DNA from: Leptospira biflexa
GTDB lineage: Bacteria > Spirochaetota > UBA4802 > UB4802
DNA length: 64,000 nt
Assembly (NCBI GenBank): GCA_020721905.1
Contig: DYLU01000002.1
Location: 11,314 to 75,313 of the forward strand
Reading direction: 5' to 3'
A program made the position numbers and the translations under genes. This document shows positions 13,191 to 49,610 of the stretch, one piece after another. Positions within the stretch are counted from its first letter, which is position 1. The number at the start of each line of letters is the position of its first letter. Under the pieces are notes generated by a model. It had not been told where the DNA came from. It saw only the letters and a list, made by a program, of their open reading frames with translations, and searched no databases.

Positions 13191-13838
13191 TTATTCTTTA
13201 CACTTATACCCAACATTTCGTATGGTTTCTATTATATTATTAAACTCATCCCCCAATTTAATTCTAAGCCTTCTTATATGAACGTCAACCGTACGAGTAC
13301 CCCCAATATACTCAACCCCCCATATTTGTGAAAGTAACTCCTGACGTGTAAAAACTATACCTTTATTTTCCATTAAAAATTTAAGTAATTCAAATTCTTT
13401 ATATGTTAGCAATATATTGTCATTGTTTACTGTTACCGAATACTTTTCAGGCTCTATGGTAATATTGCCAACTTTGATAACCGAATCCTTTAATTCAATT
13501 TCAGCACCTATCAGACGATCAATACGCGCTTTTAATTCACCTTTTCTGAAAGGGAACACAATAAAATCATCAAAAAACCAGTCCCTGTTTACTGATTCTA
13601 AATATCCAGCCCGTACAATAAGTATGACTGGCAATCGCTGAAAACGCTTTCGAAGCTTTGAAAGATAAAACTGTGTATCGCTGATATCAATTTGCTCAGT
13701 ATCAAATAATGCTATATCAAATCCTTCATCCTTTAGAGTATTAATAGTACCATGAACACTTACATCTAAAATCTGAAGCATTCTTACTTCAAGAACCAAT
13801 TCCTTATTTTGTGTAATGAGTGCCGTTTTAATTTTCAT
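13191..13838 (-). CDS. OmpR/PhoB-family response regulator (receiver plus winged-helix DNA-binding domain)
   Basis: C-terminal trans_reg_C signature (LTYKEFELLKFLMENKGIVFTRQELLSQIWGVEYIGGTRTVDVHIRRLRIKLGD). N-terminal receiver-like domain. No adjacent histidine kinase. Confidence 0.7.
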   Translation of the reverse strand: MKIKTALITQNKELVLEVRMLQILDVSVHGTINTLKDEGFDIALFDTEQIDISDTQFYLSKLRKRFQRLPVILIVRAGYLESVNRDWFFDDFIVFPFRKGELKARIDRLIGAEIELKDSVIKVGNITIEPEKYSVTVNNDNILLTYKEFELLKFLMENKGIVFTRQELLSQIWGVEYIGGTRTVDVHIRRLRIKLGDEFNNIIETIRNVGYKCKE

Positions 13839-15001
13839 TTTTTATTAACTAATGTTAAAAAAATATTCATATACCGTTCTGCTACATTTTCGGCATAAAA
13901 GGTTGTAATCTTTTTTTTATTATTTACAGAACAGTATTGATAGAGCTTTTTATCATTATAAAATTTCATAATACTTTCAGCACACTTTTCCACATCACCA
14001 ACATTAATGAGCATTGCATTTTCACCATGGATAAGAAAATCAACCTGCCCCCCATGGTTGGTAGCAACAATAGGCAATCCGCAATACATGGCTTCCATAA
14101 ACACAATGCCAAATCCTTCATGCATTGATGTAAGTACAAACAAATCAGATTGCGATAGATAGGCAAATTTTTTCTCGTCGGCAACAAATCCCATAAACTG
14201 CACTCTATCGTGTAATGACAATTCTTTCACAAGTGATTCTAAGTATTCCCTTTCAGGACCATCTCCCATAATGAGAAGTTTGATGGCAGGATTATCAAAA
14301 AGAGCTATCGCCCTTATAAGAATATCAATTGATTTACGCTTTATCAATCTTCCAATAGTTATACAGATAAAATCTTTTTCATGCAGCCCCAATTTTTTCC
14401 GTGATGTTTTTGGTATTACTGGCGGATGGAATGCTAACGGTATAATCTGAATTTCTTTTTTTGGTGCATAGTATTCTATTGCGTTATTGCGGGTATTTGA
14501 TGATTGTGCCACAATTACATCAGCTCTGTTAAGGAGAAAACGAACAACAGATTTAAAAAATCGACTTCGGTGAGGTGATATTTTTTTACTTGGATCATAA
14601 ATATCACCACCATGCAATGATAAAACATTTGGAATGCCAAATAACTTTGAAATTACATACCCTAGAGGGCCTGATGGAACAACAAAATGCGTATTGATAA
14701 CATCAAACTTATATTTTAAGGCAAGCGATAGTGCCCGTATAAGCCCTGCAGGCAGGTAGCTAAGCATTGAAATAAATGTTGCTGCATCCCTTGATTTTCT
14801 GAAAAAAATCTTTACCCTGTGCACATGAATCCCATTAATATTTTCATAGGAGGGTAACCCTTTAAATGACGAAGTGATGACATGCACATTTGCTGACTTC
14901 ACCCACTCCAATGCCAGGTCATATGTTGCAACACCCCCACCCCCCCCTAATGGAGGAAATTCATAATTTATAATTAATATATTAATCTTTTTTTCTTTCA
15001 T
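13835..15001 (-). CDS. GT4-family glycosyltransferase (388 aa)
   Basis: GT4 C-terminal motif EGFGIVFMEAMYCGLPIV. N-terminal FPPLGGGGGV Gly loop. Overlaps the response regulator gene by 4 nt. Confidence 0.8.
   Translation of the reverse strand: MKEKKINILIINYEFPPLGGGGGVATYDLALEWVKSANVHVITSSFKGLPSYENINGIHVHRVKIFFRKSRDAATFISMLSYLPAGLIRALSLALKYKFDVINTHFVVPSGPLGYVISKLFGIPNVLSLHGGDIYDPSKKISPHRSRFFKSVVRFLLNRADVIVAQSSNTRNNAIEYYAPKKEIQIIPLAFHPPVIPKTSRKKLGLHEKDFICITIGRLIKRKSIDILIRAIALFDNPAIKLLIMGDGPEREYLESLVKELSLHDRVQFMGFVADEKKFAYLSQSDLFVLTSMHEGFGIVFMEAMYCGLPIVATNHGGQVDFLIHGENAMLINVGDVEKCAESIMKFYNDKKLYQYCSVNNKKKITTFYAENVAERYMNIFLTLVNKK
14935..14947. repeat. homopolymeric tract C5-A-C8 (G-run on the coding strand) inside the GT4 glycosyltransferase
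   Basis: Sequence accccc a cccccccc taatgg read directly. Encodes the GGGGG loop of the GT4 N-terminus. Confidence 0.6.
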
Positions 15002-15312: not shown

Positions 15313-15933
15313 ATGAAATTCTTTCAATTTTTAGCTATTATTACCACACTATCTTCATTATTTGCCTGTTCAACTATCGATGTAGCTTCTACCAATAAAC
15401 AGGCAATACAAAAAAGAATGAAGCGGGTTGCAGTATTTCCCTTTGACATAAAAGGTGCCGGCTGGGGAGATGAATTTTCAGATGCTATCTCACATCAATT
15501 TTTTAAAAGCGGAAAAGTTACTACCATTGAACGTGAAGCCATACAAAAAATTCTGCAGGAACAGCAGCTTTCTGCCTCTGGTTTAATTGACGATAAACAG
15601 GCTGTAAAAATTGGTAAATTTTTAGGTGCAGATGTTATCATCATTGGCCGTGGCTCTGCTTTACAGGCATACAGAAACAATAAGTTTGAACCCAACTGTA
15701 TTGATACTTTTACATTAAAAGCCATTAATACTGAAAATGGCGAAATTTTGCTAACCGTTCGCAAAGAACCAGGAAGGGCATGGGACTGGCGTTACAGAGC
15801 AAAGTTTTGCTGTGGATTAACATTAATCTGGAATCTCAATGATATTTTAATAGAGAGTTCACAATATGATGACATTGCAAAACAGATAGTTAAGCAAATC
15901 CTTGGTATTTTACAAGAAGAAAATAAAAGATGA
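15313..15933 (+). CDS. CsgG/TolB-N-like periplasmic lipoprotein (206 aa) with C-terminal W/CC motif
   Basis: Signal peptide plus lipobox (LSSLFAC). Core resembles the CsgG/TolB-N/FlgO-like lipoprotein fold (KRVAVFPFD...KVTTIEREAIQKILQEQQLSASGLIDDKQAVKIGKFLGADVIIIG). C-terminal WDWRYRAKFCCGL. SD aaggtgg upstream. Confidence 0.6.
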   Translation: MKFFQFLAIITTLSSLFACSTIDVASTNKQAIQKRMKRVAVFPFDIKGAGWGDEFSDAISHQFFKSGKVTTIEREAIQKILQEQQLSASGLIDDKQAVKIGKFLGADVIIIGRGSALQAYRNNKFEPNCIDTFTLKAINTENGEILLTVRKEPGRAWDWRYRAKFCCGLTLIWNLNDILIESSQYDDIAKQIVKQILGILQEENKR

Positions 15934-16709
15934 TATTTAAATGTACAACATATACCAGCCTTTTAATCCTGGTTAGTATTGTTGCTTTTTTTTCTTCTGC
16001 CTATTCATCCGAATTTGATGAGCTGGACAAGCCTCCTGAAGGTATACACAAAGATCAGATAATACTTACAGGCTCAGTTTCTATTGGCATTCCTTACGGC
16101 GATCTTATTTCAGCCGAAGAAAAATTTACTAAAACTTCAACCTACACCTTTGAGAATGAAATAACTAAACTTATTTATCTATCACATTTAGCTTTTGGAT
16201 TAACAATGTCAGGAGAATATCTTCCTATCGATTATATTGGTATTCGCTCAAAACTAAGGCGCAGTGTTATAGTTCAGAATACAAATTTTGGCGCTGACTA
16301 TCAATCCTGGAAAAAAACACTGTACAGCGATTATTCTGTTTATTTTGGCCCATCTTTTCATGTTACTAATAGAAAGCCATGGGACATTAGTTTATCACCC
16401 ATGCTTGGCTATGTATTTGCTACTTATAAGCCAACTCCTATAGCCCGCGTACTTATTGATGGGTATATACCACCGCCAACACAACAGTTTTCAAGTATGA
16501 CCTATGGTGTTGATGTTATGCTCAGCATATTTTTCAGCGGGGGGCTTGTTTTCCAGATTGGTGGGGAATGGATACGTAACAATATACTATTTTCATCAAT
16601 ACCAGATGCCGTTAATCCACAAACAAACCAGATTTTTTATACAAAGAAAGATGCCACCATTGATTCCGTTCTTTTCTGTGTTTCAGCAGGTTACGCCTTC
16701 TATAATTAA
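15930..16709 (+). CDS. putative outer-membrane beta-barrel protein (259 aa)
   Basis: N-terminal hydrophobic signal. Alternating hydrophobic beta-strand pattern. Aromatic-rich C-terminus (AGYAFYN). 4-nt overlap (ATGA) with the upstream lipoprotein gene suggests translational coupling. Confidence 0.5.
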   Translation: MIFKCTTYTSLLILVSIVAFFSSAYSSEFDELDKPPEGIHKDQIILTGSVSIGIPYGDLISAEEKFTKTSTYTFENEITKLIYLSHLAFGLTMSGEYLPIDYIGIRSKLRRSVIVQNTNFGADYQSWKKTLYSDYSVYFGPSFHVTNRKPWDISLSPMLGYVFATYKPTPIARVLIDGYIPPPTQQFSSMTYGVDVMLSIFFSGGLVFQIGGEWIRNNILFSSIPDAVNPQTNQIFYTKKDATIDSVLFCVSAGYAFYN

Positions 16710-16831: not shown

Positions 16832-17821
16832 TTATTCTATTACAGCATTGCCTGTATTAACAAGCATTGAGACGACACGTGCTGTAGTTAATTTATCCTT
16901 AGTCTTCAACTTTACAGGTAACCGCAAAAACTGATGCATACATCCTCTTCGTCTGTGTTCTAATGGGAAACTTCCATCATCAAATTGCTTCTTTATACAC
17001 TGATTAAATAACCGTATCCTGAACGCTTCAGCTGTATCGTCTAAAAAAAGTGAAAACTGAATGGCATCGATGCTATCATAGTCTAAATAAAATGGGTATC
17101 CCAGCAATTCATGATTATATGCAACTCTGCACCTGCAACCAGCTTCTGTAAATATGGCATCATTGCGGAACATATAGGCGATAGCTCTTTGAAAACTATC
17201 ATTGCAATTCCTGGTATCTATTTTCATCAGGGCTTTTGCACACATGACAGTTGCAACCGCACAACTTGGAGCATCAGTATGCACTAATCCAAGTCCTTTT
17301 CCAGTACGTTTAAAAAGCAAATATTTCAGTGAATCACCAACTGAACCGATTGGGCAATACAGCCAGCCACCATCATCCCTCTGATGAGACAGAATCCATT
17401 CTATACCTTTCTCCACTTCCTTTCCCTGATATCCGCTTTCCAGCAGGTAATACACTAACTGTCCGGTAATACATGCCGTTGAACAGAAAGGTTTCCAGTT
17501 TAAAGTAAATCCGCCATCATCCTGCTGAAATTTTAGTATTTCTTTAAGAATTGAGTACACAATATTATCACTGACATTACATCCACTTTCAACAAATGAT
17601 GAAAAAAACCACATAATCCCAATACCCGGTGCATCAAAATAATCATAGGCTTTTTTATTGAGAGAATGCAAACTGATTGAATTTACTATTACTTTGCTGT
17701 CTTTTTGTACATTATTTTCTTTTAAGGCAGGAATACTTTTTAATAAAAAAAATAATGATACTGCATCATCTGCCAACCATTGGATTACATCACCATTTAA
17801 ATATTTTGATTGAATCTTCAC
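16832..17821 (-). CDS. prenyltransferase/squalene-oxidase repeat (alpha-alpha toroid) protein, 329 aa
   Basis: Three QxxDGG[FW] repeats (QQDDGGF, HQRDDGGW, KQFDDGSF), characteristic of terpene-cyclase/prenyltransferase beta repeats. No signal peptide. Confidence 0.6.
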   Translation of the reverse strand: MKIQSKYLNGDVIQWLADDAVSLFFLLKSIPALKENNVQKDSKVIVNSISLHSLNKKAYDYFDAPGIGIMWFFSSFVESGCNVSDNIVYSILKEILKFQQDDGGFTLNWKPFCSTACITGQLVYYLLESGYQGKEVEKGIEWILSHQRDDGGWLYCPIGSVGDSLKYLLFKRTGKGLGLVHTDAPSCAVATVMCAKALMKIDTRNCNDSFQRAIAYMFRNDAIFTEAGCRCRVAYNHELLGYPFYLDYDSIDAIQFSLFLDDTAEAFRIRLFNQCIKKQFDDGSFPLEHRRRGCMHQFLRLPVKLKTKDKLTTARVVSMLVNTGNAVIE

Positions 17822-17836
17822 CTATAGTATAGTTGC

Positions 17837-18565
17837 TTATTTTTTTAAACTGGCAATGCGATTATAATTCTCTACAATGACGGGGTTATCCGGGGCAAGC
17901 TTTCTTGCCTTTTCAATGATTTCAACAGCTTTTTTTACATCACCAGCCTGAACATAACTCATAGCAAGATTATTGCAAATATACGCTGAAGAAGGTGCCA
18001 GTGCATATGCAGCCGAATATGCAGTCTGTGCCTGGGTAATCCTGCCTAAAGCCATAAGCACATTGCCCAATTCATTATATGCATAGTACATCTCTGGATC
18101 AAGTGAAATAGCTTTTTCTAAATACTCTTTAGCCTGCCAGTACGAACCAATTCCTGAATAGGCCAATCCCAGAATATAATATGCAACAGGTTCCTGCTTG
18201 ATCTGCAACGCTTTACGGGCCCACGTCATTGCATCTGTATAGCGCTTATAATCTATATATATGAAAGCAATATCAATGAGAGGATTCACGCTATCTTTTT
18301 GAATTTCTGCACAACGCTTTAAATGTTTTAGAGCCGATTCATAATTACCCTTCCTGCCATGGATATGACCGGCTAAATAGCGAAGATTATAATTTGGTGA
18401 ATTTGTCTCAAAATCTCTTGAAACATCCAGAACCGATGCTACTTCGGCTAATGCATCATCATATTTTCCTTGCTCAAACAGTTTCAAGGCTTTATCATAA
18501 TCTGCATATAGCACCACGGGGATTGTTAGTATAAAAGCATAAAGAAAAAATAATTTAATTTTCAC
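17837..18565 (-). CDS. secreted TPR-repeat protein (242 aa)
   Basis: N-terminal signal peptide (MKIKLFFLYAFILTIPVVLYA). Multiple TPR-like W-LG-Y-A-F-A-P motifs (AYYILGLAYSGIGSYWQAKEYLEKAISLDP). Confidence 0.7.
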   Translation of the reverse strand: MKIKLFFLYAFILTIPVVLYADYDKALKLFEQGKYDDALAEVASVLDVSRDFETNSPNYNLRYLAGHIHGRKGNYESALKHLKRCAEIQKDSVNPLIDIAFIYIDYKRYTDAMTWARKALQIKQEPVAYYILGLAYSGIGSYWQAKEYLEKAISLDPEMYYAYNELGNVLMALGRITQAQTAYSAAYALAPSSAYICNNLAMSYVQAGDVKKAVEIIEKARKLAPDNPVIVENYNRIASLKK

Positions 18566-43328: not shown

Positions 43329-44189
43329 ATGATTACACCTCATACAAAAGGCATTCTGTATGTACTTCTTTCCGCAGTTACTTTTTCTTTATCAACGGTG
43401 TTTGCAAAATACATTACCAGTACATCCCCCATTCATGGTATTGAGGTATCTTTTGTAAGATTCCTCATTGGGTTCATTATCTCTTCAGGTTATATTGTAA
43501 TCCACAAAATGAGCATTTGCCCTAATAATGTACCTCTGGTGCTTACCCGTGCTGTATCAAACACCGTGGCTGTAATACTTTTTTTTGTCGGAGTTCAATA
43601 TACAACAGTTACCAATGCTAATATGCTCAATATGACATATCCTGTTTTTGTATTTGTGCTTGCTCCTTTATTTAATAAGGAACGCATTATAAAAATTAAT
43701 ATTTTGTATCTCATGATAACTCTGGCCGGCACCTATCTGGTGATACTGCCTCATTACAGTACCATCAATATTGGTGATGTATATTCATTTCTTTCGGCAA
43801 TCATTTCTGCTATTGCTGTGGTAGCTCTGCGTGAATCACGAAAATATGATAGCACATCAATAATTTTATTTCATCTTATGACTATTGGGCTTGTTATAAA
43901 TGGCATTGCCATGATCCCGGTATTTACAATTCCTGATAGTGTCACATTTGTTTATATGCTTTTTTCAGGTTTAAGTGCATATTTAGGACAGGCTTTTTTT
44001 ACTGCTGGATTTAAATTCATTGATGCAACAAGTGGTTCAATACTATCTTCAAGCAGGATATTTATTGCAGCAAGCATGGGAATATATTTTTTCAATGACT
44101 CATTTGCCACTAACATCATTATTGGCGGGTTATTAATCACGGTGGCTCTGATAGGTGTAAGTCTGGAGGAACACAAAGATATACATTAA
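43329..44189 (+). CDS. EamA/DMT-family transporter (10 TM, 286 aa)
   Basis: Two EamA-like halves. Hydrophobic profile. Typical length. Confidence 0.75.
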   Translation: MITPHTKGILYVLLSAVTFSLSTVFAKYITSTSPIHGIEVSFVRFLIGFIISSGYIVIHKMSICPNNVPLVLTRAVSNTVAVILFFVGVQYTTVTNANMLNMTYPVFVFVLAPLFNKERIIKINILYLMITLAGTYLVILPHYSTINIGDVYSFLSAIISAIAVVALRESRKYDSTSIILFHLMTIGLVINGIAMIPVFTIPDSVTFVYMLFSGLSAYLGQAFFTAGFKFIDATSGSILSSSRIFIAASMGIYFFNDSFATNIIIGGLLITVALIGVSLEEHKDIH

Positions 44190-45136
44190 TCTTCTATAAA
44201 TCCCCGCATCACCATATCCACACTACCTGCCAGCGCTTCCAGGTCATAGCCACCCTCAAGGAACGCTATCATCCTGCCACCACTGAACTCATTTGCAACC
44301 TGTTTTAACAGGACTGTAAATTTATAGTATGATTCTGAAGCAAGCCCTATGTACGATAAGGGATCGGCATTGTGGGCATCAAAACCAGCCGAAATGAGGA
44401 TAATATCAGGTTCAAATTTTGTTAATGCAGGAACTATCTGATTTTTAAATACATCCAGATACTCAGGCTCACCACTACCTGCCGGCATTGGGAAATTCAG
44501 TGTGTATCCTTCACCCTCACCTTTACCCCGTTCACTGCGGGCACCGGTTCCAGGATAATGAGGATACTGATGTGTGCTGATATACAGTACAGTTTTATCA
44601 CGTTCAAAGGTATGCTGCGTTCCATTACCATGATGTACATCCCAATCAACTATCGCAACTTTCTTCAACCCATGCTCCACCTGCAAATATTTGGCTGCAA
44701 TTGCAATATTATTGAATATACAAAAACCTGCAGCATAATCATACTCAGCATGATGACCGGGCGGTCGCACTGCACAAAAGCCGCGTATTGCTTCACCTGA
44801 CATTATTGTATCACACATGTTGAGGCTGCCACCCACCGCAAATAGCGCCACCTCATATGAACGCTTACACACTGCCGTATCCATTGAATCTAAATAATGT
44901 ATGCCGGATTCTATCTCCTGCTTTACGCGTTCAATGTATTCCGGAGAATGCACAAGTTCTATATACCGTTTTGCTCCAATTTTAGGTTCAACTTTAATCA
45001 GGGATTTATAATATGTCTGCTGACGTAATCGCTGATCTATAGCTGCCAGCCGTTCAGGCCTTTCTGGATGACCCCATCCTGTATCATGATCCATATATAC
45101 AGGATCAAAAAGGTATGCAGTAGGTACCATATACAC
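44186..45136 (-). CDS. histone deacetylase-family protein (AcuC/HDAC-like deacetylase)
   Basis: HDAC motifs (VDWDVHHGNGTQ, GFCIFNNIAIAA, ISAGFDAHNADPL, YEGGY). Confidence 0.8.
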   Translation of the reverse strand: MYMVPTAYLFDPVYMDHDTGWGHPERPERLAAIDQRLRQQTYYKSLIKVEPKIGAKRYIELVHSPEYIERVKQEIESGIHYLDSMDTAVCKRSYEVALFAVGGSLNMCDTIMSGEAIRGFCAVRPPGHHAEYDYAAGFCIFNNIAIAAKYLQVEHGLKKVAIVDWDVHHGNGTQHTFERDKTVLYISTHQYPHYPGTGARSERGKGEGEGYTLNFPMPAGSGEPEYLDVFKNQIVPALTKFEPDIILISAGFDAHNADPLSYIGLASESYYKFTVLLKQVANEFSGGRMIAFLEGGYDLEALAGSVDMVMRGFIED

Positions 45137-45217
45137 CCCGCATATTCAATAATGGTTTTCCAAAACCAAATAAAATGTTTTATAAAAAGTCAAGTACTTT
45201 AAAATTGGGCAGGTAGT

Positions 45218-45853
45218 TTACAGAGGATACCTAACCCCTAACCGTATTACCAGCCCTGACATATCCAGCTCTAAATCGCCGCTTTTAAGAGGTAAACTGC
45301 GATATCCAGCTTCAGCATAAAAATCAACCTTTGAATCAGCAGCTGGTTTTAACGAAGCACCAAAAAACAATTCCCACGAAAGTCCGCTAAAAAGTTTGGT
45401 AATGGAATCTGCAGTATATGACTTGCCTGTATTTGAGTCAGTAAAATCGGGCTGTGAATAATGTAATATCATGAATGAATAGCCCAGGCCAATGGTTATA
45501 AAAGGTGTTACATACAGTTTATCCTTTAAGTTTGGCAAGCGCACCTGTGCGTTGAACATCATGGGGACAATATAAGCATTGGTATCAGCCTTAACATCAA
45601 CAAATACAGTACCTTCCTGCTTAACACCTATTTTCCTGTCCCATCGTACCCATACAAATCCCGACTCAATCCCTGTCACAAAATAAGGATCAAGGAGCCA
45701 ACTATAGCGCAACGAAAGATCAAATCCATATTTGGATGGATCACTTGCGTATGATGTTCCTAACGCGCCATTTAATTCAGTGTTTGCACTAAAACCATTT
45801 ACAGTAGTTCCTATTACTATAAGTGTAAAAAATATAATAATTATTCTTTTCAT
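45218..45853 (-). CDS. putative outer-membrane beta-barrel protein (211 aa)
   Basis: Signal peptide (MKRIIIIFFTLIVIGTTVNGFSA). Alternating amphipathic strands. C-terminal LGVRYPL. Divergent from the paralogous lipoprotein gene. Confidence 0.5.
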   Translation of the reverse strand: MKRIIIIFFTLIVIGTTVNGFSANTELNGALGTSYASDPSKYGFDLSLRYSWLLDPYFVTGIESGFVWVRWDRKIGVKQEGTVFVDVKADTNAYIVPMMFNAQVRLPNLKDKLYVTPFITIGLGYSFMILHYSQPDFTDSNTGKSYTADSITKLFSGLSWELFFGASLKPAADSKVDFYAEAGYRSLPLKSGDLELDMSGLVIRLGVRYPL

Positions 45854-46075
45854 AAAAAACCTCTCTTGCCAATGTTTTTATATATTGTATATATTGTATG
45901 GCCCTGTGTCAACATCAATATGTGTTGCTCCACTTCAAACTTGAACTTGCAATTTTTATTTATTATCAATACATAAAAATTGTTGATTATTTACTTGATT
46001 TAAATAAAGCTTGTTACATCATCTATTCAATAACCAAAAATGTCGTAATATATTATTTATTCAAGGAATATCATT

Positions 46076-46699
46076 ATGAAAAATTTAACACTGCTTTCAA
46101 TATTTCTTTTTATGCTTTCATGTACATCCGTAGACAAATCAGTGTACATAAAAGATAAACAGGCATTGCAAAAGCCAATACGCATTGCAGTTTTAACCTT
46201 TGTTGACGCACCCAAATACCCTGGATCGGGAATAAGTATTGCTGATGCATTGACCAATGAACTGGTTCAGATATCAAATTGGGATCTGGTGGAACGTTCA
46301 CAGATAGAGAAGATTTTAAAAGAAAAATCATTTGATATGACTGGATTAACCGATTCTCAGATTACCGATATTGGCAAATTAGCAAAAACTGACTATATCA
46401 TAGTGGGTAGTGTTTCAGATTATTATTATGACAGGCAATTTTATATTGTACCAAAAACAAAGATAGCATTCAATGCCCGCATTATCAATACACAAACAGG
46501 CAGCATTGTAGGCACTTTACGCTATAACCGTGAAACCAATAAGAATGCATGGTGCGGATGCTGTCTTTTAGGATGGTATTATCTGCCAGTGCTGTTGTTG
46601 ACTGATCAGAATATTAATACGGATGTAAGCAAAGCTGCTCGTGATGTGGTAAGAACTATCAATAAGGATGTGAGTGGCAAAAGGAGCTGTTGCATATAA
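46076..46699 (+). CDS. CsgG/TolB-N-like periplasmic lipoprotein paralog (207 aa) with C-terminal WCGCC motif
   Basis: Lipobox MLSC. Core IRIAVLTFVDAPKYPGSGISIADALTNELVQISNWDLVERSQIEKILKEKSFDMTGLTDSQITDIGKLAKTDYIIVG parallels the 15313..15933 protein. C-terminal AWCGCCLLGWYYLPVLLL ... KRSCCI. Confidence 0.6.
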   Translation: MKNLTLLSIFLFMLSCTSVDKSVYIKDKQALQKPIRIAVLTFVDAPKYPGSGISIADALTNELVQISNWDLVERSQIEKILKEKSFDMTGLTDSQITDIGKLAKTDYIIVGSVSDYYYDRQFYIVPKTKIAFNARIINTQTGSIVGTLRYNRETNKNAWCGCCLLGWYYLPVLLLTDQNINTDVSKAARDVVRTINKDVSGKRSCCI

Positions 46700-46710
46700 A
46701 TCAAATCCTT

Positions 46711-46881
46711 TTACTGATAGCTATCTATCATAGTTCCCAGGCCTTCAACACTGACATGTGAAATTACATTTGCTTCTACCAGTTTCTCGCTTAATCCGGT
46801 ACGTACTGCTGCCAGTCCCTTAAGCAAATTGTTGAGCTGTTCTATACTCTGCTCTATTGCTGTTAGGTGTTGTGCCATCAT
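46711..46881 (-). CDS. small hypothetical helical protein (56 aa)
   Basis: ATG at 46881 preceded by a strong SD aaggaggg. Sequence MMAQHLTAIEQSIEQLNNLLKGLAAVRTGLSEKLVEANV... The track start at 46902 is a TTG. Confidence 0.4.
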   Translation of the reverse strand: MMAQHLTAIEQSIEQLNNLLKGLAAVRTGLSEKLVEANVISHVSVEGLGTMIDSYQ

Positions 46882-47254
46882 GACACCCTCCTTTGTGTCC
46901 AACAGTAATTTCTATTTGCAATATCGACTAAACCTGCTATATTCTTAATATAATATTTTTGAAGAAATTTTTTGTATTTTTTAAATTATCTTCCCATCCT
47001 ATTCATTACCATAATGCCATAGTAAAACACAATACATTGACCATTTGTTGTCAATTGCTGAAAAGTAAACACAAACTGGCAAAATTTTTGCAACTTAACA
47101 CTCAATCCTTTCCCTTATATAGGGAAAGTCAAAAGGATCTATCCTTTTATTAAGGAAATGTTTGATGCGTTATCTAAAAACAGTTGCTATATTCCATAAT
47201 AAGGGGATAAGGGTTACATGAATACATTCCATTTTTTGAAGGAGACCATGCATT

Positions 47255-49075
47255 ATGAAAATTAGCAAATTCCTTTTTGCAACGTATATCTTCATTATAT
47301 TCATGATTTTTCCCACATTTTATGGATTCGCTGATACTACCATTGCAATCCATCTTGATCAGGAAATATTAAATGTAAAACCAAATACAAAAGCCTGTGC
47401 TATTGTACACATAGATTTGCCCACAAAAGGCTATATCTATGCCAACCCCAAAGGTGAGGGAACCGGAAAAGCAACAACCGCTAATGCAAAAGCAACCCAA
47501 CATATAGTACCAGGAAAAACGCGCTATCTTCCCGGAACCTTTTATATTTCACCTCTTGATAGCAAACCGGTGTATATTTATAAAAAGCACACCTCGCTCT
47601 GTATTCCATTCACAATAAATACAGCACAAGAAGGCTCATATTCTTTATCATTCATAATTGAGGCTTTATATTGCAATGATGTATCCTGCACCCCCGTACT
47701 GCAAACTGTTACCCAGATAATTAACGTTGATAAATCAGCACCTGATTTTGATACATCATTATGCACCACATATAAAGAGCCTGACGATATAATTCACACA
47801 GTAAATAAAGAAGACACGTCCGGTCATTTTAATATAATAGATGCAGGTGGTAGCTCAACACTGAGTTTGTTTCATGCAATCATTTTTGGAATTCTTGCAG
47901 GCTTTTTACTCAACTTTATGCCCTGTGTACTTCCTGTAATAAGCCTTAAAATTTTAAGTTTTATATCATATGGCAACAACAAACCAGGGAAGGTAAGGAT
48001 AATGGGATTGCTGTTTACCGCAGGGATATTAACATCTTTCTTGGCACTGGCTTCGCTTGCAGCATTTGCCGGTTATAACTGGGGTGAGCTTTTTCAACAT
48101 AAAATTTTTATTATTATCATGGCAGCCATAATTTTTGCACTGGCTTTATCGTTTTTTGGTGTGTATACATTCAATATTCCACAGCTCTCACTATTGCAAA
48201 GTGCCAATGTCTATTTAGATTCATATTTCAAAGGAATAGTTGCCACACTTCTTGCTACCCCCTGCAGTGGTCCTTTTTTGGGGGCTACACTGGCATGGTC
48301 ATTAACGCAGCATCCTGTAATAATTTTTATAATTTTTATTAACATTGGTCTTGGCATGTCACTTCCATACCTGCTTTTATCATTTTATCCGTCACTTATC
48401 AGATTCATCCCCAAATCCGGAGACTGGATGATAACATTTGAGCAGTTTATGGGATTTTTAATGGTTGCCACCACCATCTACCTTATATCATTACTTGATG
48501 CAGGTACATTGACAACAACTATCTGGTTTTTGTTACTTGTATCCATTGGATTATGGCAATGGGGGCGGTTTGGGAATATAACAAAACCATCAATACAGCG
48601 AATAATTTCATTTGTTGTGCTTGTGCTACTTGTTGTTTCTGCTAGCATGATATTTTCCAGCAAAAAAACATCAAAAGCTGAAATAACCTACAAGCCTTTT
48701 GACTGGGAGGAGATAGTTCATAACAATACATCACAGGTTTCAATGGTCATTTTTACTGCTGAGTGGTGCCCCAACTGCAAATTCGTTGAGGCTACAGCAT
48801 TATCATCTTCCAGTATTATTGAATTCATATATAAAAATAATATCTCTGTCTACAAAGCCGATATCACCACAAAGAATCCGCCAGCAGAGAGCATATTACT
48901 ACAACTTGGTTCACGATCGATACCGTTTGTGGCTATCTTCCCTTCAGGAGGTAATTTTTCACAGCCTGTTATACTGCGTGATATTTATACAGCAAAAGAT
49001 TTATTGAAGGCTTTGCAAAAAGCCCTGGAATTGAGTAAACAATCAGAGATCCCTCAACTGATGACTATCCCTTAA
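47255..49075 (+). CDS. dsbD: thiol:disulfide interchange protein DsbD-like (N-terminal periplasmic domain, CcdA-type TM core, C-terminal thioredoxin)
   Basis: TM-core Cys pair (MPCVLPV ... PCSGPF). C-terminal thioredoxin WCPNCK. N-terminal signal peptide. Confidence 0.8.
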   Translation: MKISKFLFATYIFIIFMIFPTFYGFADTTIAIHLDQEILNVKPNTKACAIVHIDLPTKGYIYANPKGEGTGKATTANAKATQHIVPGKTRYLPGTFYISPLDSKPVYIYKKHTSLCIPFTINTAQEGSYSLSFIIEALYCNDVSCTPVLQTVTQIINVDKSAPDFDTSLCTTYKEPDDIIHTVNKEDTSGHFNIIDAGGSSTLSLFHAIIFGILAGFLLNFMPCVLPVISLKILSFISYGNNKPGKVRIMGLLFTAGILTSFLALASLAAFAGYNWGELFQHKIFIIIMAAIIFALALSFFGVYTFNIPQLSLLQSANVYLDSYFKGIVATLLATPCSGPFLGATLAWSLTQHPVIIFIIFINIGLGMSLPYLLLSFYPSLIRFIPKSGDWMITFEQFMGFLMVATTIYLISLLDAGTLTTTIWFLLLVSIGLWQWGRFGNITKPSIQRIISFVVLVLLVVSASMIFSSKKTSKAEITYKPFDWEEIVHNNTSQVSMVIFTAEWCPNCKFVEATALSSSSIIEFIYKNNISVYKADITTKNPPAESILLQLGSRSIPFVAIFPSGGNFSQPVILRDIYTAKDLLKALQKALELSKQSEIPQLMTIP

Positions 49076-49085
49076 AGGTATACCA

Positions 49086-49610
49086 ATGCAATCACTCAAA
49101 TATTACCATGAACTAATACAAAAAGTTGATGCATTTACAGACTCTGTCGTTTCAAAGTACGGCTACCAATTGCATTGCAGAGAGGGCTGCAGCAGTTGTT
49201 GTATACTGGAAAGTGTAATGCCCGTTGAACTTGTATCAATAGCACAATGGTTTGCAAAACAACCTGAATCAATACGATCTATAATTAAACAGGGAGATAC
49301 ACATTTCTGTATGTTTTTGCATAACAATAGATGCATTATCTATCCCATAAGACCTGTAATTTGCAGAACCCATGGCTACCCGGTCTTCATCCATAACAGT
49401 GTTGATATCTGCCCATTAAATAATAATATAAGCTTTGAACCAGAGTATATTCTTAATTTAGAGAACTGTAATACAATGCTTGCAGCTATTAATATTTTAT
49501 TCATTAAGGAAGTACAGATTCCTGCATTACAGACAGAACGCATTAATCTACGGGCGTTTTTTCAAAGCTCTGAAACCGATATCCTTTCTATAGTGCATAC
49601 CCTCAAATGA
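49086..49610 (+). CDS. YkgJ/UPF0153-family CxxCxxCC protein (second copy, 174 aa)
   Basis: CREGCSSCC motif and downstream Cys residues (CMFLHNNRCIIYPIRPVICRTHG). 3' end overlaps the convergent purD by 63 nt. Confidence 0.65.
   Translation: MQSLKYYHELIQKVDAFTDSVVSKYGYQLHCREGCSSCCILESVMPVELVSIAQWFAKQPESIRSIIKQGDTHFCMFLHNNRCIIYPIRPVICRTHGYPVFIHNSVDICPLNNNISFEPEYILNLENCNTMLAAINILFIKEVQIPALQTERINLRAFFQSSETDILSIVHTLK

Follow-up and report, generated by a model that had tools for sequence, protein, structure and literature searches.

A predicted PelC-fold lipoprotein of uncultured Spirochaetota and its lineage-restricted beta-barrel neighbour

The 64,000-nt stretch of DNA analysed here (the window; Leptospira biflexa, contig DYLU01000002.1) carries two genes for small predicted lipoproteins, each of which adjoins a gene for a small outer-membrane beta-barrel. 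We refer to the genes lipo1 and barrel1 as locus 1 (region 15313..16709) and to lipo2 and barrel2 as locus 2 (region 45218..46699); the two loci lie about 30 kb apart, and the second is our main subject. The G+C content of the window is about 37%, and its proteins are identical or nearly identical to those of uncultured Spirochaetota metagenome-assembled genomes (MAGs). We consider the chances to be somewhat better than even that lipo2 is a PelC-like, non-pore outer-membrane lipoprotein of the CsgG/PelC/LpoB superfamily, probably forming a ring at the periplasmic face of the membrane, with barrel2 as an incidental neighbour. Our confidence in the family, fold and gene context of lipo2 is high, and it is moderate to low for the ring and the loop-insertion mechanism, which are proposed by analogy with better-known proteins.

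The adjacency of lipo2 and barrel2 was found in the window and in the related loci L007/L008/L021, L019, L020 and L022, in all of which the lipoprotein identity is at least 86%. These cases carry no independent weight because the whole neighbourhood is kept as well: the gene table of L007/L008 is the same as that of the window, running through Oxidored_FMN, EamA, histone-deacetylase-like, barrel, lipoprotein, small open reading frame (ORF), DsbD, CxxCxxCC and GARS genes. In five more distant lineages of lipo2 orthologs (52–61% identity) there is no barrel homolog within 4–5 kb. The gene stands there between ilvC upstream and an unknown 93-aa gene and an ABC ATPase gene downstream (L001-3, 57% identity to lipo2), between a hydrolase gene upstream and one for a cytochrome c' lipoprotein downstream (L004-6 and L024, 54%), downstream of MaoC dehydratase genes (L009, 61%), between rhodanese and MauE genes upstream and panB downstream (L023, 52%), or between genes for an acyl-CoA synthetase upstream and an AraC-type regulator downstream (L025, 53%). 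In three lineages the barrel2 orthologs (43–57% identity) are flanked by an unknown gene of 121 aa and a gene of the beta-lactamase family, or are situated beside dnaA, and no CsgG-like gene was found near any of them. In ERZ25039527 orthologs of lipo2 and barrel2 are present on separate contigs of a metagenome assembly, possibly from different organisms. The barrel2 gene is a recent or incidental neighbour of lipo2, a lineage-restricted accident of synteny and not part of a conserved two-gene system.

The original prediction had taken the two loci for two copies of the same pair and argued that their occurrence within 30 kb of each other makes the pairing functional. That each lipoprotein adjoins a signal-peptide beta-barrel was borne out. 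The barrel1 protein, which has no Pfam match, is modelled with eight long strands and resembles OprG, OmpA, Ail, NspA and OmpW in Foldseek searches. The barrel2 protein scores 23.6 bits against Pfam OMP_b-brl (PF13505), below the gathering cut-off of 28.7, but most of its 55 homologs have a precomputed match to this family and several are named 'outer membrane beta-barrel protein'; judging from these family-level matches, it looks like a small, likely eight-stranded barrel of the OMP_b-brl type. The two barrels, however, are unrelated in sequence. Their BLASTP comparison gave an E value of 0.057, that is, no homology, and profile–profile comparison (hhalign) aligned the signal peptides alone with a probability of 23%. 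The arrangements differ too, as lipo1 and barrel1 are on the same strand and overlap by 4 nt at the end of lipo1 and the start of barrel1, whereas barrel2 is, as had been predicted, divergent from lipo2 and separated from it by a 222-nt spacer. The argument from two neighbouring pairs consequently fails for locus 2, where the barrel is unrelated and the linkage is confined to the close relatives. The idea of a lipoprotein/barrel unit is supported for locus 1, which is a conserved same-strand pair; the similarity of the two lipoproteins is itself significant.

It could still be supposed that lipo2 and barrel2 make up a real two-component outer-membrane complex, a ring or plug docked on a barrel as in PelC-PelB or LptE-LptD, which was assembled recently in the genus as a counterpart of locus 1. 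Lipoprotein/barrel partnerships recur in the superfamily, the operon of the paralog lipo1 and its small barrel is conserved, the adjacency was present in 5/5 sampled close lineages (window, L007, L019, L020, L022), and promoter-like sites on opposite strands overlap in the divergent spacer (45866..45912). We nevertheless find such a complex improbable. The adjacency is missing from the five more distant lineages of lipo2 and from the three of barrel2, barrel1 and barrel2 lack homology, the close relatives are uninformative for the reason given above, and an eight-stranded barrel would be too narrow: those of the OmpA, OmpX and OmpW class have no export-size lumen.

The relationship of the lipoproteins to each other rests on firmer ground. 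The lipo2 and lipo1 proteins are 30% identical over 186 residues (BLASTP, E 9e-19), and the motifs that had been listed in support of a shared core fall inside this alignment; on this evidence the two are old paralogs. Both pass the gathering cut-off of the Pfam CsgG family (PF03783; 45.3 bits for lipo2 and 39.9 bits for lipo1 against 20.8), although the match covers only positions 10–101 and 36–97, respectively, of the 210 profile positions, and the C-terminal half is unmatched. Their counterparts in NCBI MAG and other public records are named 'CsgG/HfaB family protein' or 'curli assembly protein CsgG'. Both are predicted lipoproteins by virtue of an N-terminal lipobox, in which the cysteine to be lipidated (Cys16 in lipo2, Cys19 in lipo1) follows a hydrophobic leader and is invariant among homologs; in the 13 aligned lipo2 sequences T17 and S18 beside it are nearly invariant. 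In both proteins the lipobox is of the spirochaete type, and the lipo2 reading frame has an AAGGA ribosome-binding site. The wider superfamily is very large (17,544 cluster representatives at E ≤ 0.001 in an exhaustive profile search), but only 16 representatives remain at E ≤ 1e-30. By sequence, the lipo2 clade consists of proteins of about 200–215 residues, and all its named close relatives come from uncultured Spirochaetota. Many proteins of 400–1500 aa (P0138, P0140, P0153, P0165, P0170 and others) contain 2–5 tandem copies of the lipoprotein core; the fold therefore also serves as a repeated module. As to CsgG-like lipoproteins of spirochaetes, the literature yielded only an in-silico survey of Brachyspira with a generic CsgG annotation.

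The AlphaFold2 model of the lipo2 monomer, built from 13 sequences, has a mean predicted local distance difference test score (pLDDT) of 77.8, with a well-defined alpha/beta core and last helix; the core elements E35-39 through E144-153 mostly score about 83–92. In a Foldseek search of the PDB the top match to this model was PelC (E 1.7e-10), followed by GNA1162, FlgT, LpoB, CT253, the CsgG pre-pore and PqiC, and it is the core region, residues 35–153, that matches the PelC, LpoB, CsgG and TolB-N structures. The lipo2 protein accordingly has the fold of PelC. This likeness is one of structure, as profiles of both families found nothing significant among the PDB sequences, the best match of the lipo2 family being again PelC (5t0z) at E 0.13. 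PelC-like, CsgG-like, LptE-like and PqiC-like proteins are outer-membrane lipoproteins with one common alpha/beta core. PelC, CsgG and PqiC are ring-forming, the ring of PelC being docked on the porin PelB, whereas LptE acts as a plug in the barrel of LptD (PMC13631591).

In lipo2 the core is followed, ahead of the C-terminal helix, by a segment of 18 residues beginning with W159, which is second only to the signal peptide in hydrophobicity (15-residue windows; Kyte–Doolittle mean 1.74). Locus-2 orthologs (51–93% identity) show the pattern AW.GCC.LGWYY.P..LL here, with G161 and C162 at least 90% conserved among the aligned locus-2 sequences, and the homologous position of the locus-1 orthologs reads [FY]CC[GS]L.LIW in 15/18 distinct full-length sequences. 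As the Cys-Cys pair occurs in the orthologs of both loci, it is an old shared feature, and the cluster of cysteines after a tryptophan near the C-terminus, to which the original prediction had drawn attention, is real and conserved. The terminal SCCI, described there as an addition of this copy, is indeed present in lipo2 and belongs to a tail [KR][GS]C(C)[IL] found in most locus-2 orthologs, but not in all of them, as it is missing in P0015, P0132 and the entire locus-1 clade. We infer that the hydrophobic segment is a loop which inserts into the membrane leaflet or lies at a subunit interface, and that the cysteines are probably clade-level additions engaged in disulfides. In one locus-2 ortholog (L009:4489-4614) the reading frame changes exactly at the GCC motif, owing either to a frameshift or to an error in sequencing; the protein as called (P0018, 185 aa) stops short, and the 43 C-terminal residues follow in another frame.

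In 3/6 contexts locus-2 orthologs have thiol-redox or cytochrome-c genes as neighbours on the same strand, different ones each time: DsbD and a CxxCxxCC protein in the window (47255..49610), rhodanese and MauE/DoxX in L023 (2813-3809) and the cytochrome c' lipoprotein in L004 (5727-6122). These neighbours might point to a need of the cysteines for redox maintenance, or they may be there by chance. They could also be read together with the five cysteines in the last 48 residues, and with the conservation of the Cys-Cys pair across the paralogs, as a sign that CGCC and the terminal CC form a redox-active or metal-binding site and that lipo2 is a thiol or metal sensor, or a store, of the envelope. 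To this we give little credence, since the redox neighbours are not the same ones and are lacking in the other three contexts, the cysteines sit within a hydrophobic segment and not in a soluble loop, and distant relatives retain the segment without them.

In the PelC-like reading, which we prefer, the lipo2 protein would be ordered from lipidated Cys16 through the alpha/beta core, the hydrophobic aromatic Cys-Cys segment and the C-terminal helix to the short Cys tail. It would assemble into a homo-oligomeric ring at the periplasmic face of the outer membrane, as PelC, CsgG, PqiC and TraT do, and its N-terminal acyl chains and Trp/Tyr-rich loop may dip into the inner leaflet. A parallel is offered by the PelBC structure, in which PelC is embedded in the membrane by its acyl chains and the conserved Trp149, and the complex depends on them for its stability (PMC12141448). 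For the Cys-Cys pair and the C-terminal cysteines the most likely role is in disulfides, which would make the loop more rigid or link adjacent subunits to each other. There are clear differences from PelC itself, the dodecameric ring lipoprotein of the Pel exopolysaccharide exporter (PDB 5t0z, 5t10, 9h80). The two share a fold, but their identity is only 10–14%, with the sequence match not significant as given above; PelC is encoded in the pel operon with the TPR-porin PelB, whereas neither pel-like genes nor PelB adjoin lipo2 in any of the six contexts; the Cys-Cys segment and the Cys tail of lipo2 are not seen in the cited descriptions of PelC; and PelC forms a dodecameric ring with an electronegative funnel, whereas lipo2 is known here from a monomer model.

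The public names suggest another function, namely that lipo2 is a true CsgG-type secretion channel whose hydrophobic segments jointly build a membrane pore through which an amyloid, or some other substrate, would pass. The lipobox and alpha/beta core are common to lipo2 and CsgG/HfaB (PF03783), the curli secretion channel lipoprotein; the Pfam match is above the cut-off, and the hydrophobic excursion that separates core and last helix would fall roughly at the place of the CsgG transmembrane hairpins. We regard this as very unlikely. The profile match is limited to less than half of the CsgG profile, lipo2 has 207 residues compared to about 277 in E. coli CsgG, and in both fold searches PelC, FlgT and LpoB ranked above CsgG. 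The CsgG channel has two transmembrane beta-hairpins per subunit, which make a 36-stranded pore, and the lipo2 model has none; its segment is uniformly hydrophobic, shows no alternating pattern and is too short for two transmembrane strands. Finally, none of the six contexts of lipo2 and its orthologs, the window included, has a gene like csgA, csgB, csgE or csgF.

Another member of the superfamily, LpoB, is an outer-membrane activator of PBP1b, and lipo2 might by analogy be a regulator which, from its anchor in the outer membrane, activates or inhibits an enzyme of the periplasm (a peptidoglycan synthase, for example), with no ring formed. LpoB was among the structural matches, and the Pfam LpoB cut-off is passed by lipo1, but both proteins remain far under the cut-off of 110.55 of the NCBIfam LpoB equivalog TIGR02722 (13.4 bits for lipo2 and 30.5 for lipo1). 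LpoB has a long flexible linker, whereas the lipo2 core begins about 18 residues past the lipidated Cys16 and leaves no room for a long disordered one; lipo2 has in addition the hydrophobic Cys-Cys segment, which LpoB is not known to possess. Linkage to a penicillin-binding protein gene was seen in a single context only, and the probability of an LpoB-like role appears low.

In contrast to locus 2, the lipoprotein and barrel genes of locus 1 form a genuine unit. A metagenome scan with a profile from a 6-sequence alignment recovered 26 lipo1 orthologs (41–95% identity), and a barrel1 homolog is next on the same strand at every one of their loci that has enough downstream DNA (22 full-length and 2 cut by the contig end). 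At the intact loci the two genes overlap by 1–4 nt or lie 7–51 nt apart, and in NCBI MAG records their proteins have consecutive accession numbers, while the genes upstream of lipo1 differ between loci. Seen from the side of the lipoprotein, lipo1/barrel1 is a conserved operon and the genuine lipoprotein/barrel unit of the window. The dependence is one-sided, as the barrel also occurs without the lipoprotein: barrel1 homologs in L016, L017 and L033 have a different upstream context and no lipoprotein, and in L018 (3750-4000) the synteny is that of the window, with 251 nt and no lipoprotein gene between the glycosyltransferase gene and the barrel. In L032 (3231-4001) the lipo1 ortholog is reduced to residues 133–204 and in L058/L059 (L058:527-968) its reading frame is broken, with the barrel intact in both cases. 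It appears that lipo1 decays or is lost while the barrel stays, although an assembly error is possible for L032 and L058/L059.

Several observations weigh against our interpretation of the two loci and should be kept in view. In the lipo2 model the pLDDT is below 50 at residues 163–173, inside the hydrophobic segment, and at the last five residues. More distant full-length relatives (about 200 aa) retain the hydrophobic aromatic segment, often without cysteines, and for this reason the cysteines may simply be small hydrophobic residues. Lipoprotein identities of 57–84% are unsampled, and the locus-2 adjacency may have been gained or lost within this gap; moreover, a recent adjacency could be functional despite its recency. 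At locus 1 synteny extends to much of a wider block (DbpA, response regulator, GT4 glycosyltransferase, lipoprotein, barrel, 329-aa ORF, TPR protein, PPDK), and the conservation of the pair is partly confounded by that of the whole block.

Some further features of locus 1 deserve mention. Just past the barrel1 signal peptide, residues 29–38 read F-x-E-L-D-K-P-P-E-G, invariant in 22/22 aligned homologs including those from loci without the lipoprotein; this motif looks like a docking peptide for a periplasmic partner. The 329-aa ORF (16832..17821, minus strand), which has only a weak squalene-hopene-cyclase-like Pfam match, lies convergently beside barrel1 homologs even where the lipoprotein is absent and the upstream genes differ (29–31% identity; L016, L017, L033), and its linkage to barrel1 spans more contexts than that of lipo1 does. 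The lipo1/barrel1 pair is flanked by genes for a GT4 glycosyltransferase (13835..15001, minus strand) and a signal-peptide TPR protein (17837..18565, minus strand), and the set as a whole is loosely reminiscent of PelF, the TPR region of PelB and PelC. A split Pel-like system was not adopted, because the glycosyltransferase is not constant, being missing from several loci that retain the pair, and because an eight-stranded barrel is too small for polysaccharide export.

The features of both loci are collected in Table 1. The promoter-like site of barrel2 is the sole strong and conserved one of the promoter and terminator scan, and its core TGTCAACA is invariant in 4–5 related sequences; overall, promoter-like sites were not clearly more numerous than in shuffled sequence (15 vs 10.1 ± 3.6). 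No RNA element was found by an Rfam search of 44000..48000. A 63-aa ORF without a Pfam match (46711..46902, minus strand) lies convergently directly 3' of lipo2; it is 86–92% conserved in close relatives and not present at distant lipo2 ortholog loci. It was rejected as a conserved neighbour, the small downstream genes of L001, L004 and L009 being unrelated to it.

Table 1. Coordinates of the genes and sequence features of the two loci (window positions).
Feature	Position	Strand	Description or basis
lipo2, locus-2 lipoprotein gene	46076..46699	+	207 aa; CsgG/PelC/LpoB-fold superfamily
Codon of Cys16, predicted lipidated cysteine of the lipo2 lipobox (FMLS-C-TSV)	46121..46123	+	Conservation in 13 aligned sequences
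Alpha/beta core domain of lipo2, residues 35-153	46178..46534	+	Model and structure matches
Hydrophobic aromatic segment of lipo2, W159-CGCCLLGWYYLPVLLL-176, with Cys-Cys pair	46550..46603	+	Hydrophobicity, conservation
C-terminal helix of lipo2, residues 180-200	46613..46675	+	
C-terminal tail S-C-C-I of lipo2	46685..46696	+	Ortholog alignment
barrel2, small outer-membrane beta-barrel gene	45218..45853	-	ORF, 211 aa; type-I signal peptide
Promoter-like site of barrel2 (TTGACA, 17 nt, TACAAT)	45884..45912	-	11/12 matches; consensus match only
lipo1, paralogous lipoprotein gene	15313..15933	+	206 aa; Pfam CsgG E 3.8e-10, LpoB E 2.9e-7
barrel1, eight-stranded outer-membrane barrel gene	15930..16709	+	259 aa; AlphaFold2 pLDDT 91.2

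The locus-1 operon resembles LptE-LptD and PelC-PelB in that a lipoprotein of this fold is likewise paired with a tightly linked barrel gene on the same strand. The partner, however, is an eight-stranded OmpW/OmpA-like barrel and not a 16- or 26-stranded channel as in those systems, and unlike their barrels it is also found without a lipoprotein. At locus 2 the likeness does not extend even to the linkage, which is not conserved. It is tempting to bring the two loci together in a hitherto undescribed outer-membrane module of Spirochaetota, in which a PelC-fold ring, fixed in the inner leaflet through a disulfide-stapled aromatic Cys-Cys loop, would cap or corral a small eight-stranded barrel; the conserved locus-1 operon would be its core, and lipo2 would be a free-standing or trans-acting version that in this genus is now placed next to a second, unrelated barrel and works with it. 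We consider this idea rather unlikely.

For lipo2 our results refine the generic label 'CsgG/HfaB family' and remove a false duplicated two-gene system, which in itself matters little. The operon at locus 1 is the more interesting lead, as a candidate from uncultured Spirochaetota for the short list of lipoprotein/barrel partnerships that includes LptE-LptD and PelC-PelB. Because the outer-membrane proteins of spirochaetes are poorly understood, a defined and testable complex of this kind would be of some value.
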